Source of the DNA: Microgenomates group bacterium Gr01-1014_7 | Lineage (GTDB): Bacteria > Patescibacteriota > Microgenomatia > Daviesbacterales > UBA10151 | DNA: 64,000 bases | Direction of reading: 5' to 3' | NCBI GenBank assembly: GCA_007376405.1 | Contig: VMGD01000003.1 | Span: 336 to 64,335 of the forward strand | Shown: piece after piece, positions 7,566 to 36,686 of the stretch | Layout: the number at the start of each line of letters is the position of its first letter | How positions within the stretch are numbered: position 1 is the first letter of the stretch | Translations under genes and position numbers: made by a program | Notes under the pieces: generated by a model | The model's input: the letters and a program-made list of their open reading frames with translations, nothing else | Databases searched by the model: none | What the model was told of the DNA's origin: nothing

Positions 7566-8111
7566 ATGCAGAAAAAGAGAAGATTAAGAATGGTTGAGGA
7601 GGCAAATAAAGCAGGAATCGATTTTTTATCTTCACTCACAGAACGAGAATTCTTAATAGCAGGTTTGGCGCTCTATTGGGGAGAGGGACACAAAAAGAGT
7701 CGTAATAGGGTTGGATTTTGTAATTCTGATCCTAAGATGATAAAATTCTTAATACTTTGGTTGGTTAAGTATTTAGGAGTAAAACTTGCCGATTTAAGAT
7801 GTAGAGTTGGAATTAATGTCATTCATACCAAAAGAGAACAAGTAGTAAGAGAATATTGGTCTAAGATAATTGGTATACCATTAAGCCAATTTAATAGTAC
7901 CAGCTTTAAAAAAGTTAATAACAAAAAGATTTATGAAAATTTTAATGAGCATTATGGAACTTTAGATATAGGTGTGGTGAAACCTACGCCTCTTTATTAT
8001 AGAATAATGGGTTTGATCGAGGGTTTAGCATGCCAGGGTAGCTCAGTGGGAGAGCACAGGATTCATATCCCTGCGGTCGCGAGTTCGATCCTCGCCCCTG
8101 GTACAAATTAA
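7566..8111 (+). CDS. LAGLIDADG-like module of the second paralog; no stop before the tRNA-Met gene, so the ORF reads through it to TAA at 8112
   Basis: LIAGLALYWGEGHK motif; colinear similarity to 4589..5266 up to ...GLA, after which the ORF continues across 8032..8103. Confidence 0.45.
   Translation: MQKKRRLRMVEEANKAGIDFLSSLTEREFLIAGLALYWGEGHKKSRNRVGFCNSDPKMIKFLILWLVKYLGVKLADLRCRVGINVIHTKREQVVREYWSKIIGIPLSQFNSTSFKKVNNKKIYENFNEHYGTLDIGVVKPTPLYYRIMGLIEGLACQGSSVGEHRIHIPAVASSILAPGTN
8032..8103 (+). tRNA. tRNA-Met/Ile2-type (anticodon CAU), intronless
   Basis: GCCAGGG-TA-GCTC-AGTGGGA-GAGC-A-CAGGA-TTCATAT-CCCTG-CGGTC-GCGAG-TTCGATC-CTCGC-CCCTGGT-A. Perfect T-arm and D-arm. G1.U72 and an A31.C39 mismatch make it slightly atypical. 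Confidence 0.6.
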
Positions 8112-12868: not shown

Positions 12869-13861
12869 ATGGAAGCAACGCTTGCGCTTTTAATCCTCGT
12901 CATCATCCTCTCATATATATACGCATTTGTGGGTGGATTTACAGACGCAGCAAATGCAATTGCCACCTCTATTGGCACAAGAGCTTTAAGTCCTGTTACT
13001 GCTGTTTTAATGGCAGGTTTTTTGGAACTGGCAGGTGCTTTAACAGGTACAGCTGTTGCTTTAACCATTGGCAAGGGGATTGTATCTTTAGAGCTTATAA
13101 CACTGGCTACTGTTGTTGCAGCACTCCTTGCAACGATGTGTTGGAGTCTTTTTACCTACTACTTTGGTATTCCTGTAAGTGAAACCCATGGTTTAATTGG
13201 AGGAGTACTTGGAGCCGCGCTTGCTACAGCTGGTACTAAAGCTGTGTTGTGGGATGGGTTAAACAAAGTTCTAATCGCAATAGTTGCATCACCCCTGCTG
13301 GGTTTTTTAGGAGGAGCAATTTTTATTAGTATTATCTATTTTTTCTTCCACAAAGGTTCAAATAAAAAAATGAACGGAATTTTTACAAACCTTCAGCGTT
13401 TATCTGCTGCATTTATGGCTTTTAGTCATGGAAGAAACGATGCTCAAAAACCCATGGGAGTTTTAGTAATGGCCCTTGCCCTATATTTTGGCTGGAAAGA
13501 TCCGCAAGTGCCTCTTTGGGTTATTCTAAGTGTAGGTTTAACAGCAGGCTTAGGGGTAGCTTATGGAGGTTGGAGAATTATTAGGACTCTGGGAACAAAG
13601 ATCACCCCCCTTACTACCGCACAAGGATTTTCTGCTGAGACTTCTGCTGCTTTAGTTTTACAGCTTGCATCACAATTTGGAATACCAGTTTCTACAACTC
13701 ATACCATAACCTCTGCAATTGTAGGGGCTGGTGCAGCCAGGAGGGTTTCAAGTGTTAGATGGGGAATTGTGCAAGATATTGTCCTTTCCTGGGTATTTAC
13801 ATTACCAGTAACAATTATTCTAGGATGGATTTTTGCTTCAGTTTTTCAATTTCTTTTTTAA
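12869..13861 (+). CDS. pit: Inorganic phosphate transporter, PiT family
   Basis: GGFTDAANAIATSIGT near the N-terminus and GRNDAQKPMG in the C-terminal half (duplicated GANDVAN-like motifs). Confidence 0.7.
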   Translation: MEATLALLILVIILSYIYAFVGGFTDAANAIATSIGTRALSPVTAVLMAGFLELAGALTGTAVALTIGKGIVSLELITLATVVAALLATMCWSLFTYYFGIPVSETHGLIGGVLGAALATAGTKAVLWDGLNKVLIAIVASPLLGFLGGAIFISIIYFFFHKGSNKKMNGIFTNLQRLSAAFMAFSHGRNDAQKPMGVLVMALALYFGWKDPQVPLWVILSVGLTAGLGVAYGGWRIIRTLGTKITPLTTAQGFSAETSAALVLQLASQFGIPVSTTHTITSAIVGAGAARRVSSVRWGIVQDIVLSWVFTLPVTIILGWIFASVFQFLF

Positions 13862-13924
13862 GTTTATTTTGTTAAAACCCCGGATGAATACAGGAATTAT
13901 TAAAGGTGGTATAATATATCTATC

Positions 13925-14158
13925 ATGAAAGTATCTCAAGATTCCAAAAGATTAGAACAACTTTCCGATAAACTATATAAAAAATATGGCAAGCCCTTAG
14001 AAGGAGAACACTGGGGTGAGTTTTTGGCTGTCTCTCAAAAAGGCAAAACAATTTTAGGTGAGACTCTTTTAGAAGTTGCTCAAAAAGCTTCTAGTATTCT
14101 TGGCCTTGGGAATTTTATCTTTAAGGTGGGGGAAAAAGCTGTTGGTAAATGGCGGTAA
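13925..14158 (+). CDS. Small protein (77 aa) preceding a retropepsin-like protease (module copy A)
   Basis: ORF only; weak similarity to 35042..35236 (GKTILGETLLEVAQKA vs GKTLTTLIKKLEKMG). Confidence 0.3.
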   Translation: MKVSQDSKRLEQLSDKLYKKYGKPLEGEHWGEFLAVSQKGKTILGETLLEVAQKASSILGLGNFIFKVGEKAVGKWR

Positions 14159-14161
14159 GTT

Positions 14162-14509
14162 ATGAATTTAATAAGTTCCCGGTTTCCTTATGTCCGGGTA
14201 ACGCTTCAAGTTTTGCAAAGAAATCTAAAAGTAGAGGTTTTATTAGATACTGGTTTTGATGGGGATATAACAGTACCACCAGAAATGATTCTAAATGGAA
14301 AACCTCCTCAGGGTTATCTTCCTTGGACTTTGGCTAACGGAGAAGAAGTAAATGCTCCTTATTTTCTGGGAAAGATAAGGATAGGGAAATTTGAACCTAT
14401 TAGTGTTTTAATTACAGCTTTAGGTGATGAGCCACTTGTCGGGAGGGGAGTAACCGATAGATTTAAAGTTATCTTTGATCATGGAAGAAAGGTTATTGTA
14501 GAGCTATAA
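14162..14509 (+). CDS. Retropepsin-like (clan AA) aspartic protease
   Basis: LLDTGFDGDI active-site motif; GRGVTDRF second motif; 115 aa. Confidence 0.5.
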   Translation: MNLISSRFPYVRVTLQVLQRNLKVEVLLDTGFDGDITVPPEMILNGKPPQGYLPWTLANGEEVNAPYFLGKIRIGKFEPISVLITALGDEPLVGRGVTDRFKVIFDHGRKVIVEL

Positions 14510-14517
14510 TTGATTTT

Positions 14518-15282
14518 ATGGATAAGAAATGGAAAACTAGTATAGCCGGGATAATTGACCTGCCTGCCGGCAGGCAAGGTGGGGAGGCCCATATTCACGG
14601 GTATAAAGTGACGGACCTGATTGAAAAAGTTAATTTTACTTCGGCCATCTGGCTTGAATTAAAAGGGGAGCTGCCAACGGAAAAAGAAAGAGCCATGCTG
14701 GATAGCATATTAATTTCAACTATAGACAATGGTTTAGGCCCGCCCTCCATAACCAATGCCCGCAATTCCGCCTCAAGCGGAAACCCCATGCAGGCTGCGG
14801 TTGCTGCAGGAGTTTTAGGGGTAGGGGATTCCCATGGGGGTGCTATTGAAGAATGTGCCAGATTGCTGCAGATGGGGATATCTGCGGAAAAGCTGGTAGA
14901 AAAAGTTATTTCTTCAGGAGAAAGGATTCCGGGATATGGCCACAAAGTCTATACGGAGGATCCAAGAGCCAAGCAAATTTTCGAGAAGGCTAAAAGTTTA
15001 GGGTTTTATGGAGAGCACTGTGAACTGGCAGTAGCAGTGGAAAAAATTCTGGAAGAAAAAAAGGGTAAGAAAATCCCCATTAATGTGGACGGGGCAATAG
15101 CGGCTGTTATATCTGACATGGGGTTTGATTACAGGCTGGGAAAAGGGTTTTTTATCATTGGCAGGGTGGTTGGGCTTGTTGCCCATATATATGAGGAATG
15201 GGTGCGCGAAAAGCCATTTAGAAGAATTCCGGACGGCGAAATTGAATATGACGGCACACCTCCCAGGAAACTACCCTCTTGA
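14518..15282 (+). CDS. Short citrate-synthase-family protein (citryl-CoA lyase / ACL C-terminal-domain-like)
   Basis: GYGHKVY citrate-synthase His signature; only 254 aa, so not a full citrate synthase; 21-bp palindrome inside the 5' end. Confidence 0.5.
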   Translation: MDKKWKTSIAGIIDLPAGRQGGEAHIHGYKVTDLIEKVNFTSAIWLELKGELPTEKERAMLDSILISTIDNGLGPPSITNARNSASSGNPMQAAVAAGVLGVGDSHGGAIEECARLLQMGISAEKLVEKVISSGERIPGYGHKVYTEDPRAKQIFEKAKSLGFYGEHCELAVAVEKILEEKKGKKIPINVDGAIAAVISDMGFDYRLGKGFFIIGRVVGLVAHIYEEWVREKPFRRIPDGEIEYDGTPPRKLPS

Positions 15283-34037: not shown

Positions 34038-35026
34038 TGGATATAAACATACTTAAACAAACAGTTCAAGCTTTACTTGCTCCCACAAAAGGAATCCTGG
34101 CTGCTGATGAAAGTTCCGGTACTATCAAAAAAAGATTCGAAAAAATTGGCTTGGAAAGTAGTCCTGATACTAACTTAGCCTACAGGAAAATGCTTTTTAC
34201 CACCCCGGGAATTGAAGAGTATCTTTCAGGAATAATTTTGTTTGATGAAACAATCAGACAAAGTATTGACGGGAAATCCGTTTCGGAATATCTAGAAAGT
34301 AAGGGTATTATTCCGGGGATAAAAGTAGATAAGGGTGCAGTTGATTTACCTAATTTTCCCGATGAGAAAATAACAGAAGGTCTGGACGGGCTTAAAGCCA
34401 GATTGGAAGAATATGCGGGAATGGGTGCCAAATTTGCCAAATGGAGAGCGGTAATCAAAATTGGTGAGGGAATTCCCACAGACACTTGTTTGTATTCAAA
34501 TGCAGAAGTTTTGGCAAGGTATGCAGCCATTACCCAAAATGCCGGATTGGTGCCGATAATTGAGCCTGAAGTTATCAGGGATGGATCACACGATCTTAAA
34601 AAAGACGCTGAAGTTACCGCGGAAGCTTTAAAAGCAGTTTTTGAAAGAATTGCTGCTCATAAAATTGCACTTGAAGGTTTAATCCTGAAAACTAACATGG
34701 TAACTGCTGGTGAGGATAACCCGAACCAGGCCAGCCCGGATGAAGTTGCCAAGGCAACTATAGATGCGTTTTTAGAGTCAGTACCGAAAGAGTTACCGGG
34801 GATTGTATTTTTATCCGGGGGGCAGCCTCCTGAGATGGCCACTGATAACTTAAATACAATAAGTAAAATTGGCGGACCATGGGAGCTAAGTTTCTCTTTT
34901 GCCAGAGCACTGCAGGGTGAGGCAATGGAATTATGGGCAGGTAAAGATGAAAATCTGGAGTCTGCTCAAAAAGCCTTTCTTGAGCGGGCCAAAAAAGTCT
35001 CCCTTGCCCGAGCGGGCAAACTATAA
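34037..35026 (+). CDS. Class I (Schiff-base) fructose-bisphosphate aldolase
   Basis: ILAADESSGTIKKRF... family pattern; about 330 aa. Confidence 0.75.
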   Translation: MDINILKQTVQALLAPTKGILAADESSGTIKKRFEKIGLESSPDTNLAYRKMLFTTPGIEEYLSGIILFDETIRQSIDGKSVSEYLESKGIIPGIKVDKGAVDLPNFPDEKITEGLDGLKARLEEYAGMGAKFAKWRAVIKIGEGIPTDTCLYSNAEVLARYAAITQNAGLVPIIEPEVIRDGSHDLKKDAEVTAEALKAVFERIAAHKIALEGLILKTNMVTAGEDNPNQASPDEVAKATIDAFLESVPKELPGIVFLSGGQPPEMATDNLNTISKIGGPWELSFSFARALQGEAMELWAGKDENLESAQKAFLERAKKVSLARAGKL

Positions 35027-35041
35027 TACAATTACGTTATT

Positions 35042-35236
35042 ATGATAAAAGCTAATCTTGCAAAGGTCTTAAAAGGTTATACTTCCGGATGGGTTTCTAT
35101 TTCTAAAGATTATAAAAAGGTCCTTGCTTCAGGTAAAACCTTAACTACCTTAATTAAGAAATTAGAAAAGATGGGTAGCCCGGATGGATATTTAATGAAA
35201 GCAGCAAAAGATTATTCCGGATATGTTGGCTCATGA
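35042..35236 (+). CDS. Small protein (64 aa) preceding a retropepsin-like protease (module copy B)
   Basis: ORF; overlaps the downstream gene by 4 nt. Confidence 0.3.
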   Translation: MIKANLAKVLKGYTSGWVSISKDYKKVLASGKTLTTLIKKLEKMGSPDGYLMKAAKDYSGYVGS

Positions 35237-35685
35237 AACCAATTCAATTGGCCTCACCAATTAAGGTTTGGTATAAGCCGCTCCCGCGATTTCCCAGAAT
35301 TTCCTGGCCTATTATAGATATTAGACTTTCTCATGGAAATAGAAGTTTACCTCAACCAGTTCTGGCACTGGTTGATTCCGGGGCAAGCTTTTCTATTTTA
35401 CATGTTGAAGTTGCCAAATTTTTAGGATTTGATTTAAAAAAGCTGGGTAAACCGCAACCAATAGGCATATCAGTCAGCGGTTCATATAGAACTTGGATTT
35501 TACCGGAACCTATTACCGTCAATATTTATGGATTTTCCTTTGAGTTTAATTTTTCAGTGATAGATAATCCCGGATTAATTTGGCCATGTATTTTAGGTGA
35601 AGATAGTATTTTCCAGGCCGCAAAACTTGATTTTCAAAGATTTAAAGGATATTTTGAAATCCGCTTTAGGCAGGATAGGAATTAG
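35233..35685 (+). CDS. Retropepsin-like (clan AA) aspartic protease
   Basis: LVDSGASFSIL active-site motif; LGEDSIF second motif. Confidence 0.45.
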   Translation: MKPIQLASPIKVWYKPLPRFPRISWPIIDIRLSHGNRSLPQPVLALVDSGASFSILHVEVAKFLGFDLKKLGKPQPIGISVSGSYRTWILPEPITVNIYGFSFEFNFSVIDNPGLIWPCILGEDSIFQAAKLDFQRFKGYFEIRFRQDRN

Positions 35686-35739: not shown

Positions 35740-36222
35740 ATGGCTGATCCAAATTCCCCGGAATTTAGTGAAACACCAACAGCAGATGCAGCAGAAGAAT
35801 TTTTGAGAAATGTAAGGGAAATTCACGCTATACAAAGAGCCAATAACACAATTGATCCCGAAGCAGCGAGAACTCAATGTAAGGAATTCGCTCAATTAAC
35901 TGAAGAAATCATGCAACAAGTTCAAAGCCTGCCTCCGGATGATTACCCCTTTGATACTAAGATTCCAGGCATTCAGGTTATAGAATTAGGAACGCAGCGA
36001 GCTATTGGGATTAATACCAAAGAAGCAACAATCCCTTTTAACCCTCTTCTTATAAGAGATCTTGTAATAATAGGAATTCCAAGTAGAGATTTACCATATT
36101 ATTCAGAGTGGGTTGTCCCGAAATATGTAATACAGGTAGAGCATAGAACAGAACCTGGGATGATCCCTCCTTTTCGGTCTACTCCAATTGAAGGAGATCC
36201 TCAATCTTATCTTGCCGGATAG
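35740..36222 (+). CDS. Hypothetical protein occupying the position of a BrnT N-terminus in a degenerate cassette
   Basis: ORF; promoter-like TTGATA/TAAAAT upstream. Confidence 0.25.
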   Translation: MADPNSPEFSETPTADAAEEFLRNVREIHAIQRANNTIDPEAARTQCKEFAQLTEEIMQQVQSLPPDDYPFDTKIPGIQVIELGTQRAIGINTKEATIPFNPLLIRDLVIIGIPSRDLPYYSEWVVPKYVIQVEHRTEPGMIPPFRSTPIEGDPQSYLAG

Positions 36223-36397
36223 AACACATTCGGGAGCAGAGGAGAGGTATTATGCTTTCGGTATTACTAACAGAGGACGTTATCTTCTAGTTTCCTTTAC
36301 CTTGAGGGGAAAACAGGAAGATCGGATTCGTCCTATTATGTCGCGGGAACAGACCAAAAAAGAGCGATTGTACTATCATAAAGAGAAAGCGAGGTGA
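36188..36397 (+). pseudogene. BrnT toxin C-terminal fragment (N-terminal FEWD...KH region missing; TTG start)
   Basis: HSGAEERYYAFGITNRGRYLLVSFTLRG...IRPIMSRE aligns to the C-terminal two thirds of the other BrnT copies. Confidence 0.4.
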
Positions 36398-36401
36398 ATA
36401 T

Positions 36402-36686
36402 ATGAAGAAAAAAATACGTAAAATACCAAGATTTAAAAATGAGGATGAGGAAAGGCAGTTTTGGTACACTCATTCACCGCTGGATTATCTTGATGATCTA
36501 AAACCTGTACAATTTGATTTTTCGGAGCTGAAACCGTCAACAAAAACCATCAGCATACGGTTGCCCCAATCTATGCTTGATCAGCTAAAAAGGCTGGCCA
36601 ATAAAAAAGATGTGCCCTATCAGTCATTACTGAAAATATTTTTGGGAGAAAAGATCAAAGAAGAAACAGTTGCAGTAAGCCCTTGA
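36402..36686 (+). CDS. brnA: BrnA-family antitoxin
   Basis: PRFKNEDEERQFWYTHSPLDY motif plus C-terminal RHH. Confidence 0.6.
   Translation: MKKKIRKIPRFKNEDEERQFWYTHSPLDYLDDLKPVQFDFSELKPSTKTISIRLPQSMLDQLKRLANKKDVPYQSLLKIFLGEKIKEETVAVSP

Follow-up and report, generated by a model that had tools for sequence, protein, structure and literature searches.

Each of two loci in a 64,000-nucleotide (nt) stretch of the genome of Microgenomates group bacterium Gr01-1014_7 (positions 336 to 64,335 of contig VMGD01000003.1, assembly GCA_007376405.1; hereafter the window) holds a gene for a small basic protein, S, followed by a gene for a retropepsin-like aspartic protease of clan AA, P, and we found the S and P families to be obligate genomic partners across >10 phyla. 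The pairing is far beyond chance and is conserved in bacterial and archaeal phyla alike. Among the mechanisms that could explain it, the best supported is that S would be a cognate, antitoxin-like inhibitor binding its own P through a conserved tail, a reading to which we assign a probability of roughly 0.4. The ORF (open reading frame) listing and the sequence bear out the two loci and four ORFs delineated by a first-pass annotation of the window, which are (aa, amino acids; pI, isoelectric point):

13925-14158, plus strand: S1, 77 aa, small basic protein, pI 9.6, distantly DUF5678-like
14162-14509, plus strand: P1, 115 aa, clan AA (retropepsin-like) aspartic protease, LLDTGFDGD at residues 27-35
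35042-35236, plus strand: S2, 64 aa, small basic protein, pI 9.9, DUF5678 family
35233-35685, plus strand: P2, 150 aa, retropepsin-like aspartic protease, LVDSGASFS at residues 46-54

S1 and P1 share a reading frame and are separated by a 3-nt gap (TAA GTT), while the stop codon of S2 and the start codon of P2 share ATGA, a 4-nt overlap. The database entries for the four products (TSC88023/24 and TSC88050/51) read 'hypothetical protein', S1 being 100% identical to TSC88023.1, and homologue searches placed their closest relatives in Daviesbacteria and Shapirobacteria. Profile searches of the 64-kb window revealed no further copies of either gene.

Pairing of the small proteins with the proteases

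The first-pass annotation had proposed a tightly coupled functional pair, while allowing for the small ORFs to be spurious and not conserved. Sequence searches retrieved 72 homologue clusters for S1 and 70 for S2, and conservation at the protein level indicates that the small ORFs are genuine genes. The proposed coupling was supported by near-obligate adjacency, by a reverse test and by the co-divergence of the partners. A scan of a genome collection for the P1 family yielded 49 loci with 55 protease hit segments, and in 52 of the 55 the ORF next upstream, on the same strand, belonged to the S1 family. Of the remaining three, two (loci L024 and L027) are the second pieces of genes broken by a frameshift, and the third is a Heimdallarchaeal locus (L036) whose upstream ORF matches DUF5678 instead. 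When the profile was built from S1's own sequence-search matches alone, the partner was still found in 39/55. The corresponding metagenome scan for the P2 family gave 33 loci with 34 hits, 29 of which are preceded by an S2-family ORF; all five others sit at contig ends with no upstream sequence, so that the partner is present in 29/29 assessable cases. Three distant relatives of P2 (28–34% identity) also have an S2-family ORF upstream (E 2e-12 to 8e-10). The gene-neighbourhood comparison that had been suggested as a check thus came out clearly in favour of the pairing. In the reverse direction, a protease gene follows S in all eight homologues inspected (five S1-type, three S2-type), with an overlap of 4–10 nt. 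Across 42 pairs, the pairwise identity matrices of S and P are strongly correlated (r = 0.86; 0/999 permutations as high), so the two genes appear to be inherited as a unit.

A natural fusion points in the same direction. Protein P0340 (283 aa, L097:2001-2852) joins in one frame a P2-family protease and, at residues 92-139, a DUF5678 domain whose score exceeds the Pfam cut-off (E 2.1e-8). It is encoded directly downstream of a proteasome-subunit gene (PF00227), and its true start is probably near residue 84, because the called N-terminus overlaps that gene. If the fusion is real, it would count as classical Rosetta-stone evidence that S and P are physically or functionally linked.

P1-family loci were found in bacteria of the candidate phyla radiation (CPR), Chloroflexota/Dehalococcoidia, Planctomycetota, Bipolaricaulota, Fraserbacteria and Acidobacteriota as well as in Methanosarcinales, Halobacteria and Heimdallarchaeia. 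Their immediate flanking genes fall into 120 clusters with 128 Pfam families, none of which occurs in more than two clusters, and no conserved third gene was detected among the 120 neighbour clusters. Since the flanking genes are unrelated between lineages, S and P make up an autonomous two-gene cassette; local synteny is retained in close relatives only. Some cassettes adjoin mobile or defence genes, namely those for a subunit of a type I restriction-modification system, ParA or a DDE transposase, and one on plasmid alpha of Nostoc PCC 7120, made up of genes RS30180 and RS30175, lies near a ParDE pair and NucA/NuiA. Altogether, twelve cyanobacterial plasmids carry the cassette, where it is annotated as 'hypothetical protein' plus 'clan AA aspartic protease'. 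Multiple copies per genome or contig are seen in this window and in the locus pairs L015/L027 and L039/L040.

Features of the two partner families

None of the homologue clusters of S1 or S2 carries a precomputed Pfam domain. Matches to PF18929 (DUF5678) were obtained for 13/21 members of the S2 family (best E 6.3e-7) and for 4/28 members of the S1 family (best E 2.3e-4); S2 of the window itself scores 14.1 bits (E 0.042), under the gathering score of 23.2 bits, and S1 of the window gave no match to PF18929. Both are accordingly remote members of DUF5678 or belong to sister families. AlphaFold2 modelled S1 as a long N-terminal helix followed by beta 33-37, beta 42-45, alpha 48-58 and beta 63-67, with a moderate mean pLDDT (predicted local distance difference test score) of 71.5, and S2 as beta 17-21, beta 27-31, alpha 34-43 and beta 49-53 (mean pLDDT 82.8). 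BLASTP found no significant similarity between S1 and S2, and the profile-profile alignment of their families is weak (hhalign E 0.018). The predicted beta-beta-alpha-beta elements nevertheless come in the same order and agree with the hhalign register, and the models thus give S1 and S2 a common beta-beta-alpha-beta core, the homologous DUF5678 core.

The first-pass annotation had noted a weak shared GKT(I/L)...L core. The region indeed belongs to the homologous core, whereas the GKT motif itself is out of register in the profile alignment: G40-K-T of S1 corresponds to Y24-K-K of S2, and G31-K-T of S2 pairs with G46-E-T of S1. The proteases are likewise related only at the profile level, with no significant similarity by BLASTP between P1 and P2 and an hhalign E of 1.6e-4 around the active site. 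The earlier view of the loci as a duplication therefore does not hold in its simple form; as read from these alignments, the two cassettes are ancient, independent and divergent versions of one design, not the product of a recent duplication.

Conservation in both small-protein families is high at the extreme C-terminus. S1 ends in VGKWR (family V-G-x-W-R), with V73, G74 and W76 nearly invariant and with a mean pLDDT of 52 in the last block. S2 ends in KDYSxYVG(x), with K56, S59 and Y61 invariant and D57, Y58 and G63 nearly so, and residues 59-64 have pLDDT values <50 despite this conservation. Both tails are thus highly conserved yet predicted to be disordered in isolation. The S proteins are strongly basic (S2-family median pI 9.9), in contrast to the P1 family, whose median pI is 4.8. 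Foldseek retrieved no significant structural neighbours of the S1 and S2 models from the PDB (nothing at E <= 0.001) or from a viral structure library, and sequence profiles run against the PDB found no solved relatives. A ubiquitin-like partner, an idea prompted by the '...GG' tails of some relatives, was discarded, as neither S model had a beta-grasp match (Foldseek, PDB), and a HicB-like or other antitoxin-like fold, proposed by a weak profile match to TTHA1013 (E 1.1), was without Foldseek support.

Two variants of the small protein deserve mention. In a subset of S1-like proteins, 4–12 variable residues continue past the end of the short form, after '...[YF]-x-[MIF]-G-G' (L033, L034, L037, L039, L040, L047, L048 and L096:2232-2504). 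Examples include YRMGG-GYQVEQE, HFGG-RHTEIDD and, in Nostoc, GFGG-TIERIAE, and such an extension could possibly be removable. The S partner in the Heimdallarchaeum locus (L036:2500-2895) is 131 aa long, with its DUF5678 match at residues 66-93 (E 4.8e-4). Its N-terminal extension of ~50 aa has a ribbon-helix-helix appearance by eye only, and Pfam and PDB sequence searches did not support that assignment.

The NCBIfam model TIGR03698 (clan_AA_DTGF) aligns to P1 along almost its entire length (E 9.6e-7), with 29.1 bits against a curated cut-off of 57.35 bits, and 22 of 23 diverse members of the P1 family match it too (best E 2.5e-11). For P2, the match is to Pfam Asp_protease_2 (E 9.4e-5), at 23.5 bits just under the cut-off of 24.3. 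These scores are significant yet sub-threshold, and P1 and P2 therefore represent sister subfamilies of TIGR03698 and Asp_protease_2. They resemble TIGR03698 and Asp_protease_2 / gag-asp_proteas in having a single lobe of ~110–150 aa, D-T/S-G-[FA] and a second hydrophobic-Gly motif. To our knowledge, TIGR03698 and Asp_protease_2 are functionally uncharacterized, and we know of no description of them that mentions an obligatory small partner. Against the PDB, the P2-family profile matched Ddi1 (E 7e-8), the protease of equine infectious anaemia virus (5e-7) and ApRick (1e-4), as well as the human and feline immunodeficiency virus (HIV and FIV) proteases, while the sole match of the P1-family profile, the protease of human T-cell leukaemia virus, was weak (E 0.98).

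Both protease family alignments retain the catalytic D-T/S-G with little or no variation, D and G being invariant. In the P1 family, D29, G31 and G34 of DTGFDG are invariant, together with F8-P9 near the N-terminus and DHG near the C-terminus, and there is an LVGRG-type motif; P2 has its catalytic D48 in LVDSGAS and a CILGED motif. No signal peptide or transmembrane segment was found in any of S1, P1, S2 and P2, and P1 and P2, which lack a hydrophobic segment fit for either purpose, are thus expected to be soluble. Together, these features describe apparently active, cytoplasmic, single-lobe clan AA enzymes with intact catalytic motifs. Retropepsins of clan AA must dimerize, and by analogy P must form its active site as a homodimer. 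An aromatic-Pro dipeptide is invariant in both protease families ~20–22 residues before the catalytic Asp and is aligned by hhalign (P1 F8-P9 at 14183-14188 and P2 W25-P26 at 35305-35310, both on the plus strand, from the family alignments). The N-terminal autoprocessing site of the HIV-1 protease is Phe-Pro, which the dipeptide resembles, and it could mark self-trimming of an N-terminal leader. Frameshifted or truncated protease genes occur in loci among L011, L023, L024, L026, L027, L029 and L049, and in L023 the small ORF is split; several of these decayed loci come from metagenome-assembled genomes whose record names suggest long-read sequencing, so that sequencing indels and genuine decay are indistinguishable.

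Possible roles of the small protein

Each locus is an autonomous, translationally coupled cassette in which, under the inhibitor reading, S would be made first and in excess. S would bind its cognate P, with the aromatic-containing C-terminal tail docking into or near the substrate cleft, and would thus serve as a stoichiometric inhibitor, the cassette acting as a toxin-antitoxin or protease-inhibitor pair. Loss or titration of S would then release P. We favour this role because S is encoded first and is coupled to P, as in antitoxin-first type II operons, because the cassette is autonomous, occurs in multiple copies and is found in variable and plasmid contexts, because an unrestrained cytoplasmic protease is a plausible hazard, and because S is, among its unstructured parts, most conserved in an aromatic-containing tail that could fit into a retropepsin cleft.

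The likeness to type II toxin-antitoxin modules extends to two small, co-oriented, coupled genes with the small partner first and to variable contexts, plasmid copies and several copies per genome. Precedents for the logic of a small cognate protein encoded beside its protease are the operon-encoded pairs staphopain-staphostatin, SpeB-Spi and AprA-AprI, and also IA3 of yeast, an inhibitor of proteinase A that is small and partly disordered and yet able to block the cleft of an aspartic protease. The enzymes of those pairs are cysteine proteases, metalloproteases or two-lobed pepsin-type aspartic proteases, mostly secreted, unlike P, and S has no sequence or fold similarity to inhibitors of the staphostatin, Spi, AprI or IA3 class. 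We know of no proteinaceous inhibitor of a retropepsin-type enzyme.

Several observations weigh against an inhibitor. Most type II antitoxins carry a DNA-binding domain, but Pfam and family scans detected none in S; S and P also fall outside the known toxin-antitoxin families (Pfam, NCBIfam, PADLOC) and folds. The two partners diverge at comparable rates (mean pairwise identity 0.29 for S and 0.32 for P), although an antitoxin often changes faster than its toxin. An aspartic protease is not among the toxin families of a comparative survey of type II toxin-antitoxin systems (PMC2701414). Most cassettes lie among housekeeping genes, not in defence islands; neighbour-gene clusters gave no sign of defence-island enrichment, and the cassette is absent from the INPHARED phage records and the IMG/VR data searched. 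The only fusion, P0340, stems from an 8x long-read contig and may be an indel artefact. Finally, a conserved tail is equally expected of a dedicated substrate.

That last point leads to the main rival, which we consider unlikely: P would cut the C-terminal region of S, perhaps trimming an extension or freeing active S, with the cleavage product as the functional output. The extreme C-terminus as the most conserved unstructured part of S, the variable extensions of some S1-like proteins, which look like a removable tail, and the in-frame fusion, which resembles a polyprotein in need of processing, would all suit such a substrate, and a precursor-first order is also typical of maturation systems. 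On the other hand, there is no downstream effector or third gene to use a processed product, the extension is absent from most S proteins, and S has no ubiquitin-like or other recognizable fold; a one-to-one, co-diverging protease would also be unusual for a protein of 64–77 aa without other detectable function.

Still less probable, in our assessment, is that S is an adaptor or regulatory subunit that targets P to, for example, nucleic acid or specific clients, or activates it. The strongly basic character of S next to the acidic P1 family would fit such a role, and co-divergence and fusion fit any stable complex. The logic would be analogous to that of the accessory domains that Ddi1 joins to its protease, or to RimB with RimK, and is less well supported here. 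P shares the homodimeric clan AA catalytic domain with RimB, RloA, APRc/ApRick and Ddi1; RloA and APRc are secreted or membrane-bound, unlike P, and S is not ubiquitin-like by Foldseek. Ddi1 and ApRick are among the best PDB matches to the P2 family. RimB, a cytoplasmic bacterial retropepsin-like enzyme, does act with a partner protein, the ATP-grasp ligase RimK (10.1101/2025.03.18.643919). However, no ATP-grasp neighbour was seen beside the cassettes among the 25 families listed, other partner genes are likewise missing from the vicinity, searches gave S neither a nucleic-acid-binding nor a ubiquitin-like fold, and nothing points to clients.

We regard as more improbable again a switch of the ImmR/ImmA kind, in which S would be a regulator or sensor that P cleaves on a signal, thereby controlling a mobile element, a stress response or a defence response. 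The regulator-first order, the overlap and the mobile contexts do resemble Xre-COG2856 pairs (PMC2701414), and the archaeal S homologue of L036 might be read as carrying a ribbon-helix-helix. The sequence searches described above do not bear out that fold, typical S proteins have no DNA-binding domain and no conserved target genes lie next to the cassettes. That the small ORFs are spurious or their adjacency coincidental, for which only their small size and the lack of above-threshold family matches for the window proteins could be cited, has practically no chance of being correct given the dozens of homologues conserved as proteins down to ~20–30% identity, the position and strand upstream of the protease kept across phyla, the co-divergence and the in-frame fusion, and it is refuted by the upstream-partner counts.

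Returning to the inhibitor reading, a wider version of it is that DUF5678 proteins are the first cognate protein inhibitors of retropepsin-type proteases and form with them a widespread bacterial and archaeal toxin-antitoxin or abortive-defence module; we hold this to be tentative and on balance doubtful. The S-P pair may also be a prokaryotic relative of the retroelement arrangement of an upstream protein plus a self-releasing protease, an analogy drawn because an in-frame fusion exists and both protease families keep the aromatic-Pro dipeptide.

The pairing appears to be undescribed, in agreement with the first-pass annotation: literature searches found no paper on it, and the partners are annotated as 'hypothetical protein' and 'clan AA aspartic protease'. 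DUF5678 is a family without known function in the literature, where the sole paper containing the name is unrelated. PADLOC lists a two-gene 'phage defence candidate', PDC-M52 (FAM_01284>>FAM_00696), with a count of 55, which we take to be embedded occurrences; it has no published function and its families are without annotation in the supplement (bioRxiv 10.1101/2024.01.29.577857, supplementary file 8). The proteases match PDC-M52B weakly and only in part, over the active-site half (P2 E 1.2e-4, P1 E 0.011), the other PADLOC match being a weak one to a generic peptidase model, and neither S1 and S2 nor 49 relatives match PDC-M52A. PDC-M52 and the S-P pair are alike as two-gene cassettes, but those of the window are not embedded in defence systems. 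In a survey of archaeal CRISPR loci, retropepsin-domain proteins of ~100 aa were found near type III systems in Sulfolobales, with no partner.

Bacteria and archaea commonly encode free-standing retropepsin-like proteases, almost none of which has a known role. The pairing gives two uncharacterized families, a retropepsin subfamily and DUF5678, a testable functional context, be it inhibitor, antitoxin or substrate. Were S to act as an inhibitor, retropepsin-type enzymes would have their first natural protein inhibitor, and toxin-antitoxin or defence biology a new class of effector. The CPR bacterium of the window is uncultured, but Nostoc/Anabaena PCC 7120, which is genetically tractable, carries the cassette too, on its plasmid alpha, and experiments are therefore feasible.

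Possible transcription signals and surroundings in the window

Further features of the window that touch on the cassettes or their surroundings are as follows:

13907..13915, plus strand: possible extended -10 box TGgTATAAT, read from the sequence, ending 9 nt before the S1 ATG
35004..35032, plus strand: promoter-like site TTGCCC-17-TACAAT, 9/12 consensus matches, ending 9 nt before the S2 ATG
12869-15282: region of the S1-P1 cassette, with a phosphate-transporter-like gene as left neighbour and a citrate-synthase-like gene as right neighbour
35740-36222: ORF of 160 aa, 3' of the S2-P2 cassette
36188-36397: ORF of 69 aa, 3' of the S2-P2 cassette
36402-36686: ORF of 94 aa, 3' of the S2-P2 cassette (the three ORFs together span 35740-36686)

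A consensus scan reported no plus-strand promoter near S1, because no -35 element matches there. The promoter-like site before S2 falls within the 3' end of the upstream aldolase gene, and sites of this kind are not rarer than in shuffled sequence; promoter and terminator scans were uninformative at both cassettes. Each small gene has its -10-like box ending 9 nt ahead of the ATG, and neither is preceded by a convincing Shine-Dalgarno sequence at the usual spacing; the arrangement suggests that the S1 and S2 transcripts are leaderless or near-leaderless.

In two related genomes (L001 and L002), the S1-P1 cassette sits between succinyl-CoA-synthetase-alpha-like and citrate-synthase-like genes. 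The gene downstream of P1 is thus the same as in the window while the upstream gene differs, from which it follows that the left flank was rearranged and that the cassette and its right flank stayed together.

The sole tRNA of the window, a tRNA-Met (CAT) at 8032-8104, lies inside a listed ORF of 181 aa (7566-8111), which is probably non-coding in its 3' part at least. Downstream of the second cassette, the 69-aa and 94-aa ORFs resemble by eye a toxin-antitoxin pair of the BrnT/BrnA type, the toxin being possibly truncated; PDB sequence searches with the ORFs downstream of this cassette found nothing. A relative of the 94-aa protein is encoded ~2.5 kb downstream of the cassette-1 homologue in L001.

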